A stretch of DNA of 24,000 bases, taken from contig JAVZCJ010000004.1 of the NCBI GenBank assembly GCA_038874475.1, positions 105,493 through 129,492 on the forward strand. Direction: 5' to 3'. The notes beneath the pieces are model-generated. The model was not told where the DNA came from and did not search any database. It worked only from the letters and a program-made list of their open reading frames with translations. This stretch comes from Nitrososphaerota archaeon (GTDB taxonomy: Archaea > Thermoproteota > Nitrososphaeria_A > Caldarchaeales > JAVZCJ01). The translations under genes were made by a program, and so were the position numbers. Of the stretch, positions 4,072-16,153 are shown one piece after another (position 1 is the stretch's first letter; every line of letters begins with the position of its first letter).

Positions 4072-4368
4072 TTTAGAAGATCACCAAAAAATTTTTGATT
4101 TCAATATTTATTAAATTTATTTCTACAAATTTATAAGAGAGATATTATAGAAAAAAGAGCCTTAAAATTTAATAATCATGAAAAATTAAATATCTCTTAA
4201 TTATTTCTTTATTTATTTTTTTAAAAATTTTGTAGAGTAGCTGAAGTTTAAAAAAATTAATAATTATTGAAAGCTGGTCTATCACTAGTTTTAAAATCTG
4301 GTCTACGGCATTATTTACAATTTTTAATGAAAAAATTAATAAGACTCTTTTTTTTAATAATTATTCTA

Positions 4369-4443
<75 letters not shown>

Positions 4444-4891
4444 TAATGTTTATATGAAATACTTTATTTCTTAAAAATAAATTTTCTATCAAATAAAGAT
4501 TCTTTTTTATGAAATCAAGCTAAAAGTAGTAAGTATGAACTATTAAATAAGTTTATATTTTTTTAGAATATTTCTAATCATACTAAATATGCTGGGAGAG
4601 AAAAGTAGAAAGAGAGAGAATTGGGATTTAATCGCACAAAATACTAAAAGAGAATTTTCTCATATTTTTATGTAGCGTCCAATTATTACTTATTTCTATT
4701 TTTAAATTCTTTTAATTCTTCTAAATTTCTTAATCATCTTTCTTATCTTGTTTATTTCATTATATTTTTAAACTAATTGTTCCTTCTAATCTGGTAAAGC
4801 TTCTTATTGCCAATTTCTACTATTCAAGATTTGCAGCAAAAACTTTTATGCAATATTCTTTCTTACCTTCTTGCTCTTCAAATATTTTTAT

Positions 4892-4956
4892 AATGGTAAA
4901 AAAATTTCACTAAATGGTGAAACATTTAAATATAAGAAAAATATTAAAAGTGAAAG
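4892..4956 (+). promoter_or_regulatory. candidate promoter/operator of the wHTH-NTase operon
   Basis: The TATA-like tttaaatata at 4925..4934 is centred about 27 nt before the ATG at 4957, which implies a leaderless or near-leaderless mRNA. Directly upstream is the inverted repeat tttcac(4905..4910)/gtgaaa(4917..4922). The direct repeat aatggt occurs at 4892 and 4913, 21 bp apart. A third gtgaaa sits at 4950..4955. Confidence 0.35.
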
Positions 4957-5574
4957 ATGAAGAAAGAAGAAAAAATACTTAGAGAAATTTTAATTGGAAT
5001 AAAAGAAGGAAAAGAAACTTTTTTTCAAAAAGAAATATCTGAAAAATGCAATGTTTCTATAGGCTTAGTTAATAAAGTTATAAAAAAACTAGAATTACAA
5101 AATTCTTTACAAAGGAAAAATAAAGGATTTTCTATTATAGATCCTAGCAAAATTTTATTATACTGGGCAATAAAAAGACAAATTAAAAAAGAAATAAATG
5201 AAAAATATTATATTAAGAGCACAATTGAAACAATTGAAAAAACCTTGCCTGCTTGTGCTATATTTACCGCATTTTCTGCTTGGAAGCTTTTAACTGGAAG
5301 AGTTCCAGCAGATTATAGAGAAGTTTACATTTATGTTCCTAAAAAAGAAGAAAAAATGATTAAACTATGGTTAAAAGAAAATAAAATATTCAAAGGGCCT
5401 GAAAACCTTTTTATAATTTATATTAATGATGAACATTTGATAAAAAATTCAAAGAAAAACATAGCACCATTACCACAAATATTTGTAGATTTATATTCAA
5501 TTGGTGGAATAAGTAGTAAGTATTTTTTAAAAGATATTCTTGAAACAAATCCTGAATTTAAATTTGAGGTATGA
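4957..5574 (+). CDS. winged-helix DNA-binding protein, AbiEi-antitoxin-like
   Basis: N-terminal HTH-like segment FQKEISEKCNVSIGLVNKVIKKLE. The C-terminal part (IFTAFSAWKLLTGRVPADYREVYIYVP ... APLPQIFVDLYSIGG) resembles the AbiEi/COG5340 C-terminal domain pattern. The stop overlaps the next gene's start by 4 bp (ATGA). Confidence 0.5.
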   Translation: MKKEEKILREILIGIKEGKETFFQKEISEKCNVSIGLVNKVIKKLELQNSLQRKNKGFSIIDPSKILLYWAIKRQIKKEINEKYYIKSTIETIEKTLPACAIFTAFSAWKLLTGRVPADYREVYIYVPKKEEKMIKLWLKENKIFKGPENLFIIYINDEHLIKNSKKNIAPLPQIFVDLYSIGGISSKYFLKDILETNPEFKFEV

Positions 5575-6218
5575 ATATGGAATTATGGAATGAAAAAGCT
5601 ATAGAAAAAAGTGAAAGAATATTAAATGAATTGAAGAAAATTTCAGATTTTGTTTTGGTTGGCGGATGGGCAGTTTTTTTATGGACAAAAGCTATAAAAT
5701 CTATAGATATTGATATTTATATGAATTTTGAAAATTTTTATAAAATCCAATCGATTTTAATTGAAAAAGGAATTTTCATTAATTTTAATCCAAAGCTTAA
5801 AAAATATAGCACAAAAATTGAAGAAGTAGATATTGATATTTATACTCCTGATCAATGTGGATTGGTAATACCATGTAAAGATGTTTTCAAAAATAAATGG
5901 TTTGAAACAATAGGAAGGTTTAAAGTTTTAAAAGCAGAACCTTTAATGTTACTTAAACTTGATGCTGAAAGTAAAAGGTCAAGTACCATAAAAGGATTTA
6001 AAGATAGATGTGATATTCTTGCCTTAATTACAAAATTGGATTTGGATACAAATTTTCTTAATTATTTATTCAAAAAATATAATGCTTTTACTCTTAAAAA
6101 AAGGCTAATAAAAATTGTGAAAGATTCTTCAGAAGAATATAAATATGCATTACAAAAAACAATCATTCCAAGCAAGCTTAAGAAATTAAAGAAAGAAATT
6201 ATTTCAAAGATAAGTTAA
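5571..6218 (+). CDS. minimal Pol-beta-fold nucleotidyltransferase, AbiEii-toxin-like
   Basis: VLVGGWAVFLWTKAIKSIDIDIY fits the hG[GS]-x(9-13)-Dh[DE]h NTase signature. A second acidic block, VDIDIYTP, lies downstream. The gene is translationally coupled to the wHTH gene. Its last 80 bp are repeated at 9949..10028. Confidence 0.5.
   Translation: MNMELWNEKAIEKSERILNELKKISDFVLVGGWAVFLWTKAIKSIDIDIYMNFENFYKIQSILIEKGIFINFNPKLKKYSTKIEEVDIDIYTPDQCGLVIPCKDVFKNKWFETIGRFKVLKAEPLMLLKLDAESKRSSTIKGFKDRCDILALITKLDLDTNFLNYLFKKYNAFTLKKRLIKIVKDSSEEYKYALQKTIIPSKLKKLKKEIISKIS
6139..6218 (+). repeat. 80-bp direct repeat, copy 1 (3' end of the NTase CDS including its stop codon)
   Basis: A base-by-base comparison with 9949..10028 shows 80/80 identity. 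Mismatches occur immediately outside both ends. Confidence 0.95.
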
Positions 6219-6520
6219 GTATAAAAATATTATAAATGATAATTTAGATAAGACATTAAAAGTACTATTGTTAAAATGATGGTAATTACAAAAATTATGA
6301 TATTCTGAAAAATAGATTCTGTTTTTATACATTTTCTCTTCATTATTTAATCTCTCTTATCAAAAAGTATATTCTTATTATTTCCTTTCTTGCCTGTTTT
6401 TCAAATTTCCTACTCTATTCCTAAAGTTCCTTTTGTTATATTCCAGCATAATTTTTTCTCTATACATAGAATAATGAATTAAATTATTATAAAATTAAAA
6501 AAGTTTTATCTTAAATATGA

Positions 6521-6634
6521 TGCGGAGGGTGGGATTTGAACCCACGAGACCCCTATGGGATTCTCCATATTCTTCCGGAGCCTCACTCCGGGAAATTCTG
6601 TCCGGCGCTCTTGACCAAGCTAAGCGACCTCCGC
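6521..6634 (-). tRNA. tRNA-Leu (anticodon GAG), class II, with two predicted 14-nt introns (6586..6599 and 6561..6574)
   Basis: The minus strand reads GCGGAGG-U-C-GCUU-AGCUUGGUCAA-GAGC-G-CCGGA-C[AGAAUUUCCCGGAG]UGAGGC-UCCGG[AAGAAUAUGGAGAA]UCCCAUAGGGGUCUC-GUGGG-UUCAAAU-CCCAC-CCUCCGC-A. The Leu-type D-loop and long variable arm (CCC-AUA-GGG) are present. Removing the two bracketed segments yields a perfect anticodon arm with loop CUGAGGC. Confidence 0.8.
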
Positions 6635-6785
6635 AATACCAATTTTATTTTTAGTAGTTAGATGTATATATTTTTAATAATCTTTAAAAATAATATGGCA
6701 ATTAATAAATTTTTAAATAAAACCATCAATAATAAAATTTCTTAAAATAAAAAAATTTATTAACATTAATATAATCGCTAATAAT

Positions 6786-6859
6786 GGGCTGGTAGATCAG
6801 TCTGGAAGATCGCCCCGCTCGCACCGGGGAGGTCGCGCGTTCAAATCGCGCCCAGTCCA
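6786..6859 (+). tRNA. tRNA-Ala (anticodon CGC), no intron
   Basis: GGGCUGG-UA-GAUC-AGUCUGGAA-GAUC-G-CCCCG-CUCGCAC-CGGGG-AGGUC-GCGCG-UUCAAAU-CGCGC-CCAGUCC-A. The G3:U70 alanine identity pair is present. Confidence 0.92.
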
Positions 6860-6987
6860 TAAAATTTTTCACTCTTAAAAATTATCATTTAAGTAATGAA
6901 GTATTATCTATTTTTAAACTATTTTTTTCTATATTAAACTTAAGGAAATTTTTTAAAAACATTAATCAATATCTGTTTAATAGATGG

Positions 6988-7351
6988 TTGATTATAGGTC
7001 ATACTATTGCTAAAATTAAGATTTATAATCCTAAATACGAATCTCTAAGCTTAGAGCTTGAATTGTTAGTTGATACTGGTTCAACTTATACTTGGATTGC
7101 ATTTGAAAAACTTATAAAATTTAAAGTTAAACGATTAGGAGGAGTTTCAAAACTCTAGATAATAGAATTATTAAACGTGATATTGGCGAAGTAATAATTG
7201 AATATTTAGGTAGAAGAGCTATAACAATAGTAGTTTTGCTGAGAAAGAAGATAATGAAGTTTTAGGATTACATGCTTTAGAAGATTTAAGACTTGAGGTA
7301 GATCCAATAACGAAACAACTTAAAGGATCCGAAGCAATATTAACACTATAA
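6988..7351 (+). pseudogene. retropepsin-like (clan AA) aspartic protease, disrupted by two frameshifts
   Basis: Three consecutive frames together give (M)IIGHTIAKIKIYNPKYESLSLELELLVDTGSTYTWIAFEKLIKFKVK / TIRRSFKTLDNRIIKRDIGEVIIEYLGRRAITIVV / FAEKEDNEVLGLHALEDLRLEVDPITKQLKGSEAILTL*. The catalytic DTGS motif and the overall layout match small archaeal single-domain aspartic proteases. The shifts lie near 7128..7135 and in the T4 run at 7234..7237. Confidence 0.6.
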
Positions 7352-7629
7352 TTGAATTATAAACTGTATAATTTTTATTTCTTTTCTAATCTTTCTCTAA
7401 AATTTTTTATCTTTTGGAAGTGAAATAAATACACGACTTTCACTAATTCATTAACAAACATAGTAACATTATATTTACCAGCAATTATTAGAAATTGAAT
7501 TTTGATATTAAGCTTTTTTCATTTATTCTATCAACTTAATACGATTAATTAATTTTTCATCATGTCTTGTTTTTTAACTATTATAAAAAACTTATATTAT
7601 ACGTAGATAAATGAATTTTTTAATATATA

Positions 7630-7677
7630 GGCGATGAAGCTCGCCTTTAACCGCCCTTGCTTCAATATTGCGAGGGC
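7630..7677 (+). other. GC-rich double hairpin upstream of, or overlapping, the start of the toroid-protein gene
   Basis: Hairpin 1 is ggcga(7630..7634)/tcgcc(7641..7645) with a 6-nt loop. Hairpin 2 is gcccttgc(7653..7660)/gcgagggc(7670..7677), 8 bp including one G-U, with a 9-nt loop. It is preceded by the strong TATA-like ttttttaatatata (7616..7629). Function is unknown. Confidence 0.4.
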
Positions 7678-8597
7678 TGATAGCTTCTACCAATTTAAAT
7701 AAGAAAGGGTGGAATGCTATATTGCATGAAGCAGGGCGAATTTCCCCATGGACTCAAATTAAAAGCTTTGATAAACGATCATCTATTCAATCAAGAGTTA
7801 AAGCTATTATAAATTATATAATTAATAGACAAAATGATGATGGAGGATATGCTTTTTGTAAAGGCACAGACTCAAATGCTCAAGATACTTATTATGGATT
7901 AGCAATATTAAAATTATTAAAAGCTCCTTTTCCAAATTTACAAAAAACAATTAATTGGTTAAATAATTTTGTTCCAGACAATCTTTATTCATATTTTTAT
8001 ATAGCTAAATCTTTAAAATTATGTGATCAAGAAATAAATAAGAATCTTAAGAATTTCCTCCTTTCTCTTGAAGTTTCTAATGAAGGATTTGGAACATTAG
8101 ATGTTTATGTAGAAGTCTCTTCAGAATTTGAAGCTACATTTATGATTACTGAACTTATAAATATGTTAAATCTTAAAATCAATAATGAGAAAATAATTAA
8201 ATGGTTATTAAAATATCAAAATAATGATGGCGGATTTGGAGCTCATGAATATTCAAACTTAAGTTCAACTTATCATGCTATAGCTTCCCTTTTCAATCTT
8301 GGTTATCCTATTAAATCTCTTACTAAAACTCTTGAATATGTTAGGTCTTGTGAAAAACCCTCAGGAGGTTTTACTGTAGTACCAGATATTTCTAAACCAT
8401 ACATGGAACATACATATTATGGAACAATGATTATTGATTTATTTGGTGAAAATTTAAAATACCCTGAAAATACTTCTCAATTTGTTTTAAATTGTCAAAA
8501 TTCAAATGGTGGATTTGCAAGATCTGAATTTGGAATATCAACTTTTGAAGATACTTTCTATGCTGTTAATATATTAAGAAAAATTGGCAAGATATAA
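7668..8597 (+). CDS. alpha/alpha-toroid protein with prenyltransferase/squalene-cyclase-type repeats
   Basis: Six helical-hairpin repeats, four with the classic motif: NRQNDDGGYAF..DTYYGLAILKLL, KYQNNDGGFGA..STYHAIASLFNLG, CEKPSGGFTV..HTYYGTMIIDLFG, CQNSNGGFAR..DTFYAVNILRKIG. There is no in-frame ATG near the 5' end. Candidate starts are TTG 7668 (inside hairpin 2) or TTG 7722, which has GGGTGG 9 nt upstream and seems more plausible. Confidence 0.7.
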   Translation: MRGLIASTNLNKKGWNAILHEAGRISPWTQIKSFDKRSSIQSRVKAIINYIINRQNDDGGYAFCKGTDSNAQDTYYGLAILKLLKAPFPNLQKTINWLNNFVPDNLYSYFYIAKSLKLCDQEINKNLKNFLLSLEVSNEGFGTLDVYVEVSSEFEATFMITELINMLNLKINNEKIIKWLLKYQNNDGGFGAHEYSNLSSTYHAIASLFNLGYPIKSLTKTLEYVRSCEKPSGGFTVVPDISKPYMEHTYYGTMIIDLFGENLKYPENTSQFVLNCQNSNGGFARSEFGISTFEDTFYAVNILRKIGKI

Positions 8598-8606
8598 AAG
8601 GCGAAG

Positions 8607-9392
8607 ATGATGATTAAAAAAGACGCATTAACAATAACAATTTTTGAAAGTATTAAAAAATCAGATATATGCCCATTATGTTATCTTTGGTTAAAAAACG
8701 AAGAACGCTATATGAATTATCTTCTTACAAATGAAGTAGTAATGAGCCCTGAATTTGGAGAGAAAGTTTTAGTTGCTAAAGGATTTTGTAATCGTCACAT
8801 GCATTTATTATATAAAACTGCTTATGGAGGGCATACTGAAAATGGTTTAGGATATGCTCTTTATATGCAAAAAGTTATTGAAGAAATTTATAAAGATTTT
8901 GAAATATTGCTTAATAATTTAAATAAACTTAAGAATTTAGAAAGCAATATTTTTAATAAAAAAAGAAAACAAAAGGAAATTTCATTATTATATAATAAGA
9001 TTATGCTTGCAATTAAAGGAAGGAAAAAATGTCCAGCATGCGAACATTTAGAATCAATGGATAGTATATACATACATACTTTAATTCGAATGTTAAATGA
9101 TAAAAATTTTAGAGAAGAATTTAAATCATCAAATGGTCTTTGCCTCCCTCATTTTTCTTCTATTATTAAAATGATTAATCAAAGCAAAATTAAGAACCCA
9201 ATTATTATAATTCAAACACTTTTTGAAGCAGAAAATAAACAAATTCAATTGATAAAAAATTATCTTTCAGAATTTATAAGGAAGCATAGTTGGGATTTTA
9301 GAAATGAAGCTTTTGGACCTGAAGCTAATGTAAATTATATGATTTTAAACATATTAACAGGTGTAGAAAGTCTCTATTTATTGAAACTATAA
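8607..9392 (+). CDS. uncharacterised protein with two CxxC...CxxH modules (putative zinc-binding)
   Basis: A 261-aa ORF starts 10 bp after the toroid gene, so the two are probably co-transcribed. Module 1 is CPLC(22-25)...GFCNRH. Module 2 is CPAC(152-155)...GLCLPH. The C-terminal part reads KHSWDFRNEAFGPE. No catalytic motif was recognised. Confidence 0.6.
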   Translation: MMIKKDALTITIFESIKKSDICPLCYLWLKNEERYMNYLLTNEVVMSPEFGEKVLVAKGFCNRHMHLLYKTAYGGHTENGLGYALYMQKVIEEIYKDFEILLNNLNKLKNLESNIFNKKRKQKEISLLYNKIMLAIKGRKKCPACEHLESMDSIYIHTLIRMLNDKNFREEFKSSNGLCLPHFSSIIKMINQSKIKNPIIIIQTLFEAENKQIQLIKNYLSEFIRKHSWDFRNEAFGPEANVNYMILNILTGVESLYLLKL

Positions 9393-9418
9393 ATTTTTAT
9401 CATTTAAAAAATGCATTG

Positions 9419-9814
9419 TTAAAAATTATTCTTTATTTCTAAAATTAATTTTTGTCCTTTATGATCATATACTGCAACATTTCTTTCATCTATAAATGGA
9501 AAACTAACAATCATAAGTATACTCCCAAAGAAATGGTTTAAATCCATTGCAGAAGGATTTAAATTTCCAGAGGGATGAGAGTGTACTGTTCCAATAATAG
9601 AAAAATCTATTGACAGCATATGAAGTGGAATACTAGCGAATCCCCAACCATAAGTTGCAAGCGGAGGAACAATTAATTCAGTAATATTGATCAAATTCTT
9701 ATTTTTCTTACCTCTAAGAAATAAAATCATTTCTTTTGGATAAATTTGTTTTGCACTTTCAAAAATTGCTTGTAATAATTCTTTATTGATTGAAATTATT
9801 ACGCTGCTTTTCAT
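9419..9814 (-). CDS. JAMM/MPN+ metalloprotease (archaeal stand-alone JAB domain)
   Basis: The complete JAMM signature is present: an upstream Glu (PKEMILFLRG), then GTVHSHPSGNLNPSAMD, which matches HxH-x7-S-xx-D. The 131-aa size is typical of archaeal AfJAMM/HvJAMM1-like proteins. Confidence 0.8.
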   Translation of the reverse strand: MKSSVIISINKELLQAIFESAKQIYPKEMILFLRGKKNKNLINITELIVPPLATYGWGFASIPLHMLSIDFSIIGTVHSHPSGNLNPSAMDLNHFFGSILMIVSFPFIDERNVAVYDHKGQKLILEIKNNF

Positions 9815-9948
9815 AATATCTAAAATTAGAAACTTATATTTTAATATTTTAAAAAATAGATTATTAATCTAAGATAAATTTTTTACTTTAACAATTTTTA
9901 TAAAAAATATATGGTGTGTTTTACATGTGATCATATTATTGAAATAAG

Positions 9949-10028
9949 ATAAATATGCATTACAAAAAACAATCATTCCAAGCAAGCTTAAGAAATTAAA
10001 GAAAGAAATTATTTCAAAGATAAGTTAA
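9949..10028 (+). repeat. 80-bp direct repeat, copy 2 (orphan 3' fragment of the NTase gene)
   Basis: Identical to 6139..6218. The reading frame is closed by TAA at 9945..9947, so this copy is non-coding. A weaker resemblance to the NTase gene (aaaaaatata...ttttac) may extend about 45 bp further upstream. Confidence 0.95.
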
Positions 10029-10072
10029 TAAAGGAAAAACTTTTTTGAAGTTATAATATATTTAGTAGTTTT

Positions 10073-10876
10073 TTATTCTTTTTCTTTAAAAGGATTAATA
10101 TCATTAATGAATTTTCTAATAACATCTAAAGCATTATTTATCCATTCTATAATCAATTCCCCAATACTTACAATTAAATCTAAAATTTCCCTTCCAACAT
10201 CAATAATTGTATCTACAAATTTTTTACCAATATCTATAATTGCTTCTAATATGCTTTTTCCAACATTAACAATCGTATTTCCAATGCTTATAATAGCATC
10301 TCCTATTTTTTCAAGAGGGTTTTTCTCTTGTTTAATACTTGAATTTATTAAAGATGTAGTTGAAGTGGTTATCGTAGTTTTTATTTCACTTTCGATTGTA
10401 GTTTCTTCTTTTATTTCTATTTTTCTATAATATGCAATAATTTCTCCATAATTATTTTGAACTATCAAATAATTATATGACGAGTTTTGTGAATAACTTA
10501 ATTTCCCTCCAATTATTTCCCAATGATCAAATTCATATCCTTCTTCTGGCTTATATTCTATACGGTATCTTTCATTTTTTGATAATTCTATATAACTTGG
10601 TAAAGGATAATTCTTATTATCAATACGTATAATCCCTTCATTTTCAGATTTATTATTTACACATATCGATTTTAATTCAAATACATTATGTATAGCAATT
10701 CCGGTTTCAAAAGAAAAACATTCATTTTGTTTAATATTTTTTATTAAAAGAGAATTTACATTTATTATTAATTGTGAAGTAATAATATCAAATAATATAA
10801 TAATCAATAAAATGGAAATTATATTTTTAAATATTCTATTCTCTAAGCATAAGTGATACATAGTATTCTCCTCCAT
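10073..10876 (-). CDS. membrane-anchored surface protein: N-terminal TM, beta-rich GYxFxxW domain, Thr/Ser linker, C-terminal hendecad-repeat tail
   Basis: TM segment IFKNIISILLIIILFDIITSQLII. The domain block YRIEYKPEEGYEFDHWEIIGG..IIAYY resembles bacterial/archaeal surface-repeat domains. The linker is KTTITTSTTSLINSS. The tail is an 11-residue periodic I-x-x-[IV]-G array. Alternative start at ATG 10861. The gene overlaps the upstream pilin-like gene by 26-41 nt. Confidence 0.6.
   Translation of the reverse strand: MEENTMYHLCLENRIFKNIISILLIIILFDIITSQLIINVNSLLIKNIKQNECFSFETGIAIHNVFELKSICVNNKSENEGIIRIDNKNYPLPSYIELSKNERYRIEYKPEEGYEFDHWEIIGGKLSYSQNSSYNYLIVQNNYGEIIAYYRKIEIKEETTIESEIKTTITTSTTSLINSSIKQEKNPLEKIGDAIISIGNTIVNVGKSILEAIIDIGKKFVDTIIDVGREILDLIVSIGELIIEWINNALDVIRKFINDINPFKEKE
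10097..10309 (-). repeat. coding tandem periodicity (7/11-residue repeats, 33-bp period) in the tail of the surface protein
   Basis: KIGDAIISIGNTIVNVGKSILEAIIDIGKKFVDTIIDVGREILDLIVSIGELIIEWINNALDVIRKFINDI. Conserved Gly residues are spaced 7, 7, 11, 11, 11 residues apart. The hendecad consensus is x-[IF]-[LVI]-[DE]-x-I-[IV]-[DS]-[IV]-G-x. Confidence 0.7.
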
Positions 10877-11354
10877 CTAAAGTATAAATTGTGATGTATA
10901 TTCTTTGACCAATAGAAGCTGCATATGGTGGAATCCCTATTCCAACCCCTCCAATTTCTCCAGGTTCTATAGGAATGAATGTTTTATCGTTTAAAGGATC
11001 TAATTCTTCGAATGTTTTTGCACTACCTACATCTACAGTTGTTTCAGGTGCAAAATCTTTAAACGACTTACCATTTATTGCTACATTGCATACTTTTACA
11101 GTTTCTTTTCCAATATTTTTAAATTCAATAATTATAAAGAAATAATCATCAAATGTTTTTTTACTAAAAACATAAGTAATTTCCATTTTTTTAGCATTCA
11201 TATATTTTTCAGTTGTACTAGAAATCCATGCAACAATGACTATTGTAATAATAATGCATATTGCAATTAAAATTATTGTAGTTTTTATTATACTTATTCC
11301 TTTTTTATTTTTATACATATTTTCTCTTTTTATCAAATTATTAACTTTTTTCAT
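10836..11354 (-). CDS. archaeal type IV pilin-like protein (class III signal peptide)
   Basis: N-terminus ..MYKNKKG|ISIIKTTIILIAICIIITIVIVAW matches the [KR]G|(I/A/Q)S + hydrophobic helix pattern processed by prepilin peptidase. The globular part contains FKNIGKETVKVCNVAING, typical of archaeal pilin-domain proteins. The true start may be the internal Met (MYKNKKG) at 11318. Confidence 0.6.
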   Translation of the reverse strand: MKKVNNLIKRENMYKNKKGISIIKTTIILIAICIIITIVIVAWISSTTEKYMNAKKMEITYVFSKKTFDDYFFIIIEFKNIGKETVKVCNVAINGKSFKDFAPETTVDVGSAKTFEELDPLNDKTFIPIEPGEIGGVGIGIPPYAASIGQRIYITIYTLDGGEYYVSLMLRE

Positions 11355-11387
11355 CGCTTCAACTTGGAAATTGAAATAAATTTAAAT

Positions 11388-11523
<136 letters not shown>

Positions 11524-11616: not shown

Positions 11617-12669
11617 ATGAATAATAACATATGGGCTTTAAAAATTTTTAAAAAGGATGGAGAAAAAGCTTTAAAATTAATAAAAGAAAAAAATTTACTT
11701 AATTCAAATTATAAAATCATAAGTAATGAAGAATATTTATTCATTCCATTAAAAGAAAAAATTGATGAAGATTTTTTTAAAAATAGGCTTGATTATTATT
11801 CTATTATTTTAAAAGATTTTCCTTTAAGATTAATTAAGCCAAAAAGTATCGAAGAATATTTATTAAAAAAATATGGAAAAGATATTGCAAATTTAGCTCC
11901 AAAATCTTTTGAAATTATTGGTAATATAGCTATTATAGAATCTAAGAAAGAATATGAAAAATATATAAAAGATATTGCAGAAGCAATAAAAAATGTTCAT
12001 AAAAATATTGATACAGTTCTTTTAAAGAAAAGTTCTATTAGTGGAGAATATCGTATTAGAGAATATGAAGTTTTAACTGGTTCTGGAAAAACAGAAACTA
12101 TTCATAAAGAAAATGGTTGTATTTTTCTTCTTGATATTAGAAAAGTTTTCTTCTCTTCTAAACTTTCAACAGAACATTTACGTGTAGCATCTCAAGTAAA
12201 AAATAATGAAATTGTTGTTGATATGTTTGCTGGAATAGGACCATTTTCAATACTTATTGCAAAACTTTGTAAAGCTTCTTATGTTCATTCTATTGAAATT
12301 AACCCTCATGCATATGAGTATTTAAAGAAAAATATTGAAATTAATAAAGTAAGCAATAAAATTGAAGCTATATTAGGAGATGCAAGAGGAGTTCTTAAAG
12401 AAAAAGAAAATTTTGCAGATAGAATTATTATGAATCTTCCTTATAAAGCTAAAGATTTTTTAGATATAGCATGTAAAATTGCTAAACCTAAAGCATATTT
12501 ACACTATTATTGTGTTTGTAAAGAAGGAGAAGAAGAAAAAGCTATTAAAGATTTTATGGAAAAAATTCAAAGATTTGGAAGGAAAGTTAATATTCTTAAT
12601 TATAAAAATGTTTTAGAAATTGCTCCTAGAAAATATACTCTATGTATAGATACTGAAATTTTAACTTAA
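11617..12669 (+). CDS. trm5: tRNA (guanine37-N1)-methyltransferase, Trm5/TYW2 family
   Basis: The SAM-binding block VVDMFAGIGPFSI and the catalytic-loop MNLP motif are both present. The 350-aa size and domain order are typical of archaeal Trm5. Confidence 0.8.
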   Translation: MNNNIWALKIFKKDGEKALKLIKEKNLLNSNYKIISNEEYLFIPLKEKIDEDFFKNRLDYYSIILKDFPLRLIKPKSIEEYLLKKYGKDIANLAPKSFEIIGNIAIIESKKEYEKYIKDIAEAIKNVHKNIDTVLLKKSSISGEYRIREYEVLTGSGKTETIHKENGCIFLLDIRKVFFSSKLSTEHLRVASQVKNNEIVVDMFAGIGPFSILIAKLCKASYVHSIEINPHAYEYLKKNIEINKVSNKIEAILGDARGVLKEKENFADRIIMNLPYKAKDFLDIACKIAKPKAYLHYYCVCKEGEEEKAIKDFMEKIQRFGRKVNILNYKNVLEIAPRKYTLCIDTEILT

Positions 12670-12715: not shown

Positions 12716-13753
12716 TTGGGTGTAAAAATAAGAGAAATAATTCCTCCAGAAGCAATAGCAACTATTGAATTAGAAAATCTTAATGGTAAAGCTATTGCTT
12801 TTGATGCATATAATATTCTTTATCAATTTCTTTCTATTATTAGAAGCCAAGATGGAAAACCTTTAATGGATTCAAAAGGTAGAATCACAAGTCATTTAAG
12901 TGGATTATTTTTTAGAACAATAAATTTTATTGAAAAAGGAATTAAGCCTGTATTTGTTTTTGATGGAAGGCCCCCTGAACTTAAGAGAGTTACAGTTGAA
13001 GAAAGAGAAGAAATTAGAAAAGAAGCTGAAGCTCTTTATAAAGAATATTTAGAAAAAGGAGAAATAGAAGAAGCAAGAAAATATGCTATAAGATCTGCAC
13101 AATTGAATGAAGAAATAATAAATAGTGCTAAAAAATTGATTGAATTAATGGGAAATCCATGCATTCAAGCCCCTTCTGAAGGTGAAGCTCAAGCTGCTTA
13201 TCTTGCTTTAAAAGGGGATGTTTATGCTTCTGCTTCTCAAGATATGGATTCTCTTTTATTTGGTTCTCCTAGACTTGTTAGAAATCTTTCAATAGTTGGT
13301 AAAAGACGCTTACCAGGAAAGAAAGCATATGTTGAAGTTAAGCCTGAAATAATATATCTTGATAAAATGCTGAATGTATTAAAAATTAGTAGAAAAGAAC
13401 TTATTGATATTGGAATACTTGTTGGAACAGATTATGCAGAAGGAATATATGGAATTGGGCCAAAAAAAGCTTTAAAATTAATAAAAGAATATGGTTCTAT
13501 AGAGAAAGTTTTAGAAATTCAAAAAGCTTCTTTATCAATTGATCCATCTATTATTAGAGATATCTTCTTAAATCCAAAAGTTACAGATAATTATTCTATA
13601 GAATGGCATGAACCAAATTATGATGGAATAATAAAATTTTTATGTGATGAACATGATTTCTCTATTGAAAGAGTACAAAATGCATTGGATAAATTAAAAG
13701 AATCATTATTAAAAAGTAAAGGTAAAACAAGCTTGGATATGTGGATTAAGTAG
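12716..13753 (+). CDS. fen: flap endonuclease 1 (FEN-1)
   Basis: Canonical N-terminus MGVKIREII. The XPG-N block is [11 protein letters not shown] and the XPG-I block is [23 protein letters not shown]. The H3TH is [20 protein letters not shown]. It uses a TTG start with GAGGT about 9 nt upstream. Confidence 0.95.
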
Positions 13754-13973: not shown

Positions 13974-16153
13974 TATCCTACTATTGGAGAAGGCCTTTCG
14001 CTTACTCTTATCCTTTCTTTTATCCTTTCATATTCTTTGATCATCGAAGAAGATATGCTTGGTTTAATTGTTTTTAATGCATTTTCAAAATCATTAAAAG
14101 TAACAACATCAGAATTTATATCCCTTCTCATTGCTTGCAAAGCAGCTTCCCTACATATATTTTCTAAGTCTGCTCCTGTGTATCCATCTGTTATTTTTGC
14201 TAAATATTCAAGTGATACATCAGGAGATAATGGCATCTTATTCGTATATATTTTTAATATTTGTAATCTTGCTTTTTCATCTGGTGGAGGAACATAAACA
14301 AGCCAATCCAATCTACCTGGTCTAAGCATTGCTGGATCTATTAAATCTGGCCTATTTGTTGCACCTATAACGATAACATCTGAAAGTTTCTTAACTCCAT
14401 CTATTTCTGTTACTAATTGGCTTATTACTCTATAAGATACTCCAGAATCATCTCCAAGCAATTCTTTTCTCGTAGCAATTGCTTCTATTTCATCAAAGAA
14501 TACTATTGAAGGTGCAGCCATCCTAGCTTTTCTAAATATTTCTCTTATTGCTTTTTCAGATTCTCCAACCCATTTACTAAATATTTCTGGACCATTTACA
14601 AGTATAAAGTTTGCTTCACTTTCATTTGCAACAGCTTTTGCTAAAAGTGTTTTTCCACATCCTGGTGGACCATATAATAATACTCCTTTTGGTGGAGAAA
14701 TTCCCATTCTAGAAAATTTCTCAGGATATTTTAAAGGCCATTCGATTGCCTCAATTAATTTTTGTTTTACTTCTTCAAGACCACCAATATCTTCCCATCT
14801 AACATTTGATACTTCTACTTCAACTTCTCTCATTGCTGTAGGAGTAATTTCTTTATAAGCTTCAAGAAAATCTTTCATTGTTACTTCCAAACTTTCCAAT
14901 AATTCAGGTGAAATATTTTCTTCAGAATATTCTATACTAGGCAAAACTCTTCTAATACATTTCATAGCAGCTTCTCTACAAAGTGCAGCTAAATCTGCTC
15001 CTGTATATCCTTTAGTAAGTTCAGCTAATCCATCAAGATCTACATCAGATGAAAGTGGCATTCCACGTGTATGTATTTGAAGTATTTCTTTTCTATCATT
15101 TTTGCTAGGTATTCCAATTTCAATTTCTCTATCAAATCTTCCAGGCCTTCTAAGAGCAGGATCTACTGCTTCTATCCTATTTGTTGCGCCTATAACTATA
15201 ACTTGACCTCTACTTTCAAGTCCATCCATTAAAGCAAGTAATTGTGCAACAACTCTTTTCTCTACTTCTCCTGTTACTTCCCCTCTTTTTGGAGCAATGG
15301 CATCTATTTCATCTATGAAAATTATGCTAGGAGCATTTTCTTCAGCTCTCTTAAATATTTCTCTAAATCTTGCTTCAGTTTCTCCATAATATTTACTCAT
15401 TATCTCTGGACCATTTACAAGTATAAAGTTTGCTTCACTTTCATTTGCAACAGCTTTTGCTAAAAGTGTTTTTCCACATCCTGGTGGACCATATAATAAT
15501 ACTCCTTTTGGTGGCTCTACACCCAATTTTTGGAATATTTCTGGAAATTTTAATGGAAGTTCTATCATTTCTCTAATTCTTTGAATTTCATCTTTAAGGC
15601 CACCTATATCTTCATATGTTACACTCGCTTTAAGAGCTTTTTCTTGTAAAACTCTACTTTGTATTATAATATTTGTTTTAGGTGTGATTTTAACTACTCC
15701 AGAAGGTTTTGTTTGTAATACTGCAAAAGTAAATAAATTTCCAAAGAATAATACAGGAATAATATTCTTTTGAATTACTGGATAATCTATTAATCTACTT
15801 TTTATTATTCTTGTTAAATTTTCATCAGTTTTTATAGATGTATTAACAGGTGCTAAAGTTATTGAGAATGCTTCTTTTACATCAGCTTTTTTCACTATAA
15901 CATATTCGTTTAGTGATACTCCAGCATTACTTCTTATATACCCATCTATTCTAATAATATCTTTCTCTTTCTCATCAGAGTATCCTAACCATAAAGTTGC
16001 AGCTGCAATTTTTTTACCTTGAATTTCTATAATATCTCCTGTTGAAAGACCTATACTTGCACCTACTTCTCTATCTATACGTGCAATTCCATAACCAACA
16101 TCTCTACGTCTTGCTTCAGCTACTCTTAATCTAAGTTCTTTATTCTTCAACAT
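13973..16153 (-). CDS. cdc48: CDC48/VCP-like AAA+ ATPase (N domain + D1 + D2)
   Basis: The double-psi-barrel N domain reads [19 protein letters not shown]. There are two AAA modules, each with Walker A GPPGCGKT. The Walker B motifs are IIFIDEID and [11 protein letters not shown] and arginine-finger regions are present. Confidence 0.95.
14586..14695. repeat. 110-bp intragenic repeat, copy in the D2 Walker-A region of cdc48
   Basis: 110/110 identical to 15405..15514 at an offset of 819 bp (273 codons). It encodes [37 protein letters not shown]. Confidence 0.95.
15405..15514. repeat. 110-bp intragenic repeat, copy in the D1 Walker-A region of cdc48
   Basis: Identical to 14586..14695. The flanking bases differ immediately on both sides. 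Confidence 0.95.

Follow-up and report, generated by a model that had tools for sequence, protein, structure and literature searches.

A 24,000-nucleotide (nt) stretch of DNA from an uncultured Nitrososphaerota archaeon (contig JAVZCJ010000004.1, positions 105,493 to 129,492; hereafter the window) carries a perfect 80-bp direct repeat, one copy of which completes an intact nucleotidyltransferase (NTase) gene, while the other lies 3.8 kb downstream as an orphan fragment, beyond a segment with two tRNA genes. This arrangement raises the question of whether the bracketed segment is an integrated element whose target was the 3′ end of the NTase gene, with the two copies as its attachment (att) sites, or whether the second copy arose by some other route. 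An earlier note, made from the sequence alone, described the repeat as att-like and left three possibilities: a decayed or non-autonomous integrated element, the product of a duplication or recombination event, or an assembly join. Comparison of the window with conspecific contigs and with other lineages led us to a reading that we consider probable, in which copy 2 is an old relic of an NTase 3′ end, recently homogenized by short-tract gene conversion, and the 3.7 kb in the middle is resident chromosome.

Identity and boundaries of the repeat

Copy 1 (6139..6218) and copy 2 (9949..10028), both on the forward strand, matched at 80 of 80 positions, with a spacing of 3,810 nt from start to start and 3,730 nt in between. 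A 79-mer of the repeat had exactly two matches in the window with three mismatches allowed, and none of 100 dinucleotide-preserving shuffles contained any match to it. The edges were abrupt at both ends: the 6 nt on the left-hand side agreed at four of six positions, and in-register identity over 60 nt on each side was at the shuffled level (25 of 60 upstream, 20 of 60 downstream). Copy 1 covers the final 26 codons and the stop codon of the intact NTase gene (open reading frame [ORF] 5571-6218). Copy 2 is an orphan NTase 3′ relic with no start codon and with an in-frame TAA at 9945-9947, and its homology to the gene is confined to the 80 nt. The description of an 80/80 repeat with sharp outer ends thus held up under alignment, mismatch-tolerant search, and comparison of the flanks with shuffles, and ORF reading confirmed that copy 1 is the end of the NTase gene and copy 2 an orphan fragment closed by an upstream TAA. 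The earlier note had also suspected a weaker homology upstream of copy 2. This did not withstand local, gapped, and in-register tests, all of which returned shuffle-level values, and the 134 nt that separate copy 2 from the Prok-JAB gene stayed within the shuffle range in gapped local alignment against the NTase gene and the helix-turn-helix (HTH) gene that precedes it.

Distribution of the bracketed segment and its flanks in related lineages

The conspecific set was obtained by an exact-protein look-up, which returned seven contigs from seven separately deposited metagenome-assembled genomes (MAGs) with the NCBI label "Nitrososphaerota archaeon"; gene order was alike in all seven. Independent assemblies with the same layout were GCA_038873895.1, GCA_038872755.1, GCA_038871875.1, GCA_038850765.1, GCA_038826945.1, and GCA_038869555.1. 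Three further lineages were compared: a sister lineage of nine contigs (L016-L019) with about 94% nt identity to the window across Trm5 to FttA; a separate lineage, L021 (Logan SRR32459162), about 5.7% divergent; and a more distant lineage, L052/L053, whose prenyltransferase-like (PT) protein is 84% identical at the amino acid (aa) level. The window, L016, and L021 lineages formed a near-trichotomy, and the strain tree was star-like and recombining, with mixed site patterns.

The segment between the copies (6511..9947), called cargo in the earlier note, proved collinear with L016 at 80-89% nt identity and with L052/L053 at about 79-87%, within one neighborhood extending from dph, the diphthamide synthase gene in L016 and L052, to Trm5. 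In L016-L019 the order is dph, tRNA-Gly, intron-containing tRNA, tRNA-Ala, riboswitch and PT gene, DUF6062 gene, JAB remnants, intron-containing tRNA, and Trm5. Three stretches of the window are missing from L016, namely 4448-6510 (with the HTH gene, the NTase gene, and a further 292 nt), 6909-7483 (a protease pseudogene), and 9948-11369 (copy 2 with a 267-aa and a 172-aa gene), and tblastn found no trace of the NTase there. In L052/L053, dph, tRNA-Gly (reverse strand), the intron-containing tRNA, and tRNA-Ala are adjacent, with no HTH or NTase gene between them, and the riboswitch, PT, DUF6062, and JAB genes are contiguous. The bracketed segment was therefore observed directly without the NTase gene in two lineages, and the lineage-specific insertion that holds the HTH-NTase module (block A, 4448..6510) was missing from L016-L019 and L052. 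In the window, block A is bordered by the 3′ ends of two tRNA genes, tRNA-Gly and the intron-containing tRNA. By parsimony, the NTase-less arrangement would be ancestral, and block A would have been inserted in the window lineage next to an older segment. Att-like integration of a 3.8-kb cargo into the NTase 3′ end was thus contradicted, because relatives keep the cargo without the NTase gene or the repeats. The check that had been proposed for it, an empty site with the NTase stop followed directly by the sequence from 10029 onward, yielded the opposite state in L016-L019 and L052/L053, and no contig with that empty-site arrangement was found in the genome and metagenome scans.

The tRNA-Gly(UCC) gene at the left border of block A (4369..4443, forward strand) is inverted and intron-less relative to L016 and L052; its orientation is alike in these two lineages, and the state in the window is therefore derived. 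About 46 nt upstream of the gene is inverted along with it. The L016 gene (8271-8366, reverse strand) contains one 20-nt insertion, and that of L052 (about 4390-4500, reverse strand) contains two, of 14 and 13 nt.

All three variable blocks (4448-6510, 6909-7483, and 9948-11369) abut tRNA 3′ ends. These comparisons suggest that the flanks, not the middle, may be the decayed remnants of integrated DNA, with no recombinase seen. The idea that blocks A and B (9948..11369) are two decayed copies of one island was dropped, as the 292 nt that follow copy 1 (6219-6510) had chance-level short matches only to block B and to 4095-4956. A search for partial tRNA copies that could represent att scars returned nothing beyond the common T-arm motif. 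In the nine contigs of the L016 lineage, the dph, DUF6062, and JAB genes are each fragmented (7555-8245, 10001-10526, and 10804-11144 in L016), and the PT gene and riboswitch are intact, which suggests that this lineage is undergoing gene decay.

Allelic variation of copy 2

Copy 1 was identical in all seven conspecific contigs. The relic was present in all six of those that reach the copy 2 site (L015 ends before it), and three alleles of copy 2 were observed against the invariant copy 1. Allele A, identical to copy 1, is shared by the window, L001, L002, and L013, which are 99.94-100% identical to one another; allele B, with a 2-nt deletion and two substitutions, is found in L012 and L014; and allele C, with eight substitutions and a 1-nt insertion, is found in L003. 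Copy 2 of the window is thus 100% identical to copy 1 and about 89% identical to copy 2 of L003, with flanks that are 97-100% identical. The window and L003 differ by 0.8% overall, and the intervals at copy 2 were the most divergent of 314 80-nt intervals over 6.3 kb, with nine differences where the mean was 0.83; the next 90 nt to the right were identical.

The relic stands at the same block B junction in L003, L012, L014, and L021, with differing sequences. In L021 only its last 24 nt are present, and they include both allele C variants of that stretch (GAAGTTATTTTAAAG), so that the diverged variants were observed in common with a separate lineage and the diverged allele is old. A deletion of about 1.07 kb in L021 (window-equivalent 8931 to about 10004) joins the DUF6062 gene, cut at about codon 108, to the relic, with loss of the JAB gene. 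Other allele C variants occur in NTase homologs (AAACTT and AAGTT in L022 and L004, and ATT ATC in L009), which fits a relic that may have been derived from a different allele. The occurrence of allelic variants of copy 2 at the same position, together with the agreement of independent assemblies on the layout, is also reason to reject the assembly join that the earlier note had entertained.

Block B and its flanking repeat

Copy 2 forms the leftmost 80 nt of block B, a variable block of 1.42 kb that also holds a 267-aa gene with an N-terminal membrane segment (10073-10876, reverse strand) and a pilin-like 172-aa gene (10836-11354, reverse strand) with a weak match to the UpsA pilin. The block is missing from L016-L019 and present in L021. 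A direct repeat of 10 nt, ATTGAAATAA, stands on either side, with its left copy at 9938..9947 and its right copy at 11370..11379, both on the forward strand, the latter 10 nt from the 3′ end of an intron-containing tRNA (11390-11523, reverse strand; identified with Rfam). The match to L016 extends as far as 9947, the base to the left of the G next to copy 2, and is picked up again at 11370. A single copy of ATTGAAATAA was observed at the L016 empty site, which reads CATATTATTGAAATAA up to the junction and ATTTAAATAGCGGGCCC beyond it. The same 10-mer occurs four times in the 24-kb window, against one occurrence expected. No transposase domain was detected in the two genes of the block, and an end-to-end inverted alignment for terminal inverted repeats was no better than shuffles. 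The flanking repeat is equally compatible with a 10-bp target duplication and with a deletion in L016 mediated by 10 nt of microhomology. The pair of 172-aa and 267-aa genes was also found without the NTase in the metagenomic contigs L020 and L023; the 267-aa protein had only four homologs, none of which adjoined an NTase.

Origin of the second copy

In the reading that we favor, the 3.7 kb between the repeats would be old resident chromosome flanked by variable blocks A and B. Block A would be a mobile module of HTH and DUF6036-type NTase genes, inserted between two tRNA genes with an inversion of tRNA-Gly, and block B, next to another tRNA gene, would carry at its left edge an 80-nt stump of an older, different NTase allele, derived from an earlier module insertion and truncated by deletion. 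Most of the population would carry a stump that no longer matches the live gene, whereas in the near-clonal group to which the window belongs the live 3′ end would have overwritten it, presumably through non-reciprocal homologous recombination that ran from copy 1 into copy 2 over a distance of 3.8 kb. Perfect identity with sharp edges would be expected, because conversion spreads only as far as homology. We infer the direction and mechanism of this homogenization, and the origin of the stump by a truncated insertion, from sequence comparison. Among the possibilities raised by the earlier note, that of a relic second gene copy or recombination product was supported by the data, apart from the upstream homology that had been proposed for it, which was not significant.

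Several points weigh against this interpretation. The evidence consists of assembled short-read MAGs, and neither a donor of the original relic nor an intact NTase directly before the sequence from 10029 onward was found in the genome and metagenome scans. A metagenome scan with a 20-nt core of the repeat returned 28 matches, one of them an L004-type module and the other 27 due to chance in unrelated DNA; an intact arrangement of NTase followed by block B was absent from these matches. Block B may have been either gained or lost, given the near-trichotomy and the end of the outgroup contig L053 55 nt short of the site. The changes in allele B are private and not a subset of those in allele C, so that one conversion is insufficient and extra mutations or exchanges are needed. 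Finally, only two variant sites tie L003 to L021, and over 640 nt of block B, L003 differs from L021 at 31 positions versus 36 for the window; being nearer to L021 there, L003 could have acquired allele C as an inter-lineage import.

This last point bears on the reverse direction of change, in which the relic would originally have been identical to copy 1 and the alleles of L003 and of L012/L014 would have been converted or imported from other NTase alleles, either an unsampled third paralog or the relic of another lineage. Block B of L003 is about 3% from the window, compared with 0.8% for the remainder of the contig, some variants of the block also occur in L021, and the population is visibly recombining, all of which would be expected from such imports. 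However, L021 has a diverged relic at the same site, so that a diverged relic predates the window clone, and neither a set of 5.8 billion proteins nor the metagenome scan revealed a close third paralog. Moreover, for a non-coding stump to match a gene perfectly over a distance of 3.8 kb, either conversion or a very recent origin at exactly the orthologous site would still be required. We regard this reversal as unlikely. Under an account that we judge improbable, the 80-mers would be functional sites for excising and reinserting a cassette for tRNA and fluoride response, since recombination between direct repeats would yield a 3,810-bp circle, or block B would be a novel non-autonomous element that makes 10-bp duplications and captured a gene tail, as its clean 10-nt flanking repeat and the single-copy empty site beside a tRNA in L016 might indicate. 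Yet copy 2 varies among strains, and the cassette with its two tRNA genes is fixed in all relatives; block B, for its part, has neither terminal inverted repeats nor a transposase, and with the 10-mer present four times in 24 kb, L016 could equally well have undergone a deletion through microhomology. A bolder scheme, improbable to the same degree, would make blocks A and B the halves of a small, integrase-less archaeal cassette of a new type that targets tRNA 3′ flanks, leaves 10-bp duplications, and spreads an HTH-NTase addiction module, with the 80-mer as a site of recombination or copy choice.

Site-specific integration of a decayed or non-autonomous element of 3.73 kb into the NTase 3′ end, leaving attL and attR, is very improbable in our estimation. 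Perfect direct repeats do bracket the segment, one of them completing a gene, in a neighborhood rich in tRNA genes and variable blocks. Nevertheless, two lineages without the NTase or the repeats hold the segment in the same slot, from dph/tRNA-Gly to tRNA/Trm5, and the outgroup indicates that it was the NTase module that arrived later, rather than the segment. The G+C content of the segment matches that of the window, no integrase is encoded by the window ORFs, the predicted empty site was found in no contig, and copy 2 is polymorphic and diverged in conspecifics (down to 89% versus copy 1), whereas its supposed att partner is invariant. The least credible of the alternatives, with hardly any probability left to it, is an artefact of assembly or polishing, that is, a chimeric join at the 80-mer or a copy 2 that was "corrected" to copy 1. 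All data are from short-read MAGs, and 80 bp is within the k-mer range of assemblers, but order and junctions agree across six separately deposited assemblies, some of which have a diverged copy 2 that is unable to cause a k-mer join, and both junctions are flanked by unique sequence within read length.

The HTH-NTase module

The NTase gene (5571..6218, forward strand) encodes a 215-aa protein of the DUF6036 type with a GG...DxD motif, and its start overlaps the stop of a 205-aa winged-HTH gene (4957..5574, forward strand; weak HTH_24 match) by 4 nt (ATGA, 5571-5574). GG and DxD were invariant across 22 NTase homologs, among which Pfam matched DUF6036 in 15, DUF2204 in 7, and AbiEii in 2; the window NTase itself scored 19.0 bits against DUF6036, below the cut-off of 23.6. 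Searches of PADLOC, NCBIfam, and PDB sequences with the HTH and NTase proteins returned no matches. In other genomes (L004, L009, L022, and L042) the HTH gene was always paired upstream of the NTase gene. The module lies between HAD hydrolase and thymidylate synthase genes in L004 and L042 (88% aa identity), among PIN/MazE genes in L009 (78%), and in a different right-hand context in L022 (96%). Its occurrence in these unrelated contexts indicates that the module is mobile. The two genes probably form an AbiE-like module in which the NTase is the toxin-like half, and we infer that the pair is a putative toxin-antitoxin system.

Gene content of the window and the bracketed segment

The window is chromosomal DNA of 26% G+C that encodes CDC48, FEN1, Trm5, proteasome beta, and FttA. 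Within the bracketed segment lie, in order, an intron-containing tRNA (6521-6634, reverse strand; identified with Rfam), tRNA-Ala(CGC) (6785-6860, forward strand; identified with ARAGORN), a fluoride riboswitch (7621-7696, forward strand; Rfam RF01734, 53 bits), the PT gene for an alpha-alpha toroid protein (about 7722-8597, forward strand), the Cys-rich DUF6062 gene (8607-9392, forward strand), and the Prok-JAB gene (9419-9814, reverse strand). Just 3′ of tRNA-Ala, the small variable block missing from L016 (6909..7483, forward strand) contains a retropepsin-like pseudogene, in which three-frame translation revealed a DTGS motif and a coding sequence frameshifted across three reading frames. 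At this position L052 carries about 4 kb of other small genes (5097-9050), including a DUF6036-like ORF of 146 aa. The G+C content is 0.259 for the segment and 0.264 for the window, and no integrase or transposase domain was detected in any scanned ORF of the 24-kb window. The inventory given by the earlier note (two tRNA genes, a decayed protease gene, a toroid/Cys-rich pair, a JAMM protease, and no integrase) was accurate. The tRNA calls differed between programs: ARAGORN misses both intron-containing tRNAs (6521-6634 and 11390-11523) that Rfam reports, and tRNA-Ala 6785-6860 falls below the Rfam gathering threshold in the window, yet Rfam lists its L016 ortholog.

Fluoride riboswitch and other repeats

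The riboswitch lies about 25 nt upstream of the PT gene, with the DUF6062 gene next in the window. Its pairing with the PT gene was kept in every lineage examined (L003, 3307-3382; L012, 10798-10873; L016, 9011-9087; L052, 9107-9182; L053, 413-488; and L011, 9865-9938), with scores of 37-53 bits, above the gathering score of 34, including a Bathyarchaeota MAG in which the protein is 51% identical and no DUF6062 gene is adjacent. That MAG locus was the single distant one recovered by a scan of the genome collection with the PT protein, and it is informative for the riboswitch, not for synteny; the nearest named relatives of the protein are Bathyarchaeia. The product of the gene behind the riboswitch is prenyltransferase/squalene-cyclase-like, and the gene is neither crcB nor eriC. 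A literature search turned up neither DUF6062 nor the pairing of a fluoride riboswitch with this kind of prenyltransferase-like gene, an association that may be more interesting than the repeat.

Other direct repeats were also present in the window. A perfect 26-nt repeat, AAAAAGCTTTAAAATTAATAAAAGAA, occurs at 11663-11688 in the Trm5 gene and at 13464-13489 in the FEN1 gene, with at least one copy perfect in L016-L019, and could be due to chance in AT-rich coding sequence. The largest direct repeat of the window (280 nt, 79% identity; 14525-14804 and 15344-15623) corresponds to the AAA+ domains D1 and D2 of CDC48, as does the repeat at 14306-14377 and 15131-15202.

Significance and comparison with known systems

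The locus illustrates that a perfect att-like repeat around tRNA genes can mislead, given that comparison with sister lineages pointed to the flanks as the mobile DNA and to the middle as resident. It offers a small, clean example, in an uncultured AT-rich archaeon, of the turnover of a toxin-antitoxin-like module at tRNA-flanking hot spots, and also of presumed short-tract conversion of an 80-nt stump among strains of a population with about 1% divergence. Wider consequences would follow only if the repeats were to drive excision of the segment with the tRNA genes, and the phenomenon is of an ordinary kind.

AbiE (type IV) toxin-antitoxin systems combine an AbiEi winged-HTH antitoxin with an AbiEii/DUF1814-like nucleotidyltransferase, and related NTases are grouped in Pfam DUF6036 and DUF2204. 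The window module resembles them in its overlapping genes, with the winged HTH first and the NTase second, in its GG...DxD motif, and in its patchy occurrence in unrelated contexts among other toxin-antitoxin genes; it differs in that its NTase is under the DUF6036 cut-off, that AbiEii was matched in just 2 of the 22 homologs, and that PADLOC and NCBIfam gave no match. In archaea and bacteria, attL/attR direct repeats flank integrative elements, which usually target tRNA 3′ ends by means of tyrosine or SSV-type integrases. As in such elements, the direct repeats of the window bracket a few kilobases and one of them completes a gene, in a tRNA-rich setting with variable 3′ flanks. In contrast to them, the window has no integrase, the bracketed DNA is ancestral and kept by relatives that lack the repeats, and each repeat is part of a different variable block, located outside the bracketed DNA.

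A further parallel is offered by ectopic (interlocus) gene conversion in which a functional gene is paired with a truncated paralogous fragment, and by the concerted evolution of short repeats in prokaryotes. The window case differs in its tract of only 80 nt, its single donor, and the absence of an evident selective role; it also differs from the programmed conversion of pilE/pilS, in which silent copies donate to the expressed gene. As in ectopic gene conversion, the paralogous copies within the window are 100% alike, more so than the copy 2 orthologs of strains that differ by about 1%, identity does not reach beyond the homologous stretch, and only the fragment changes while the functional copy is unchanged.

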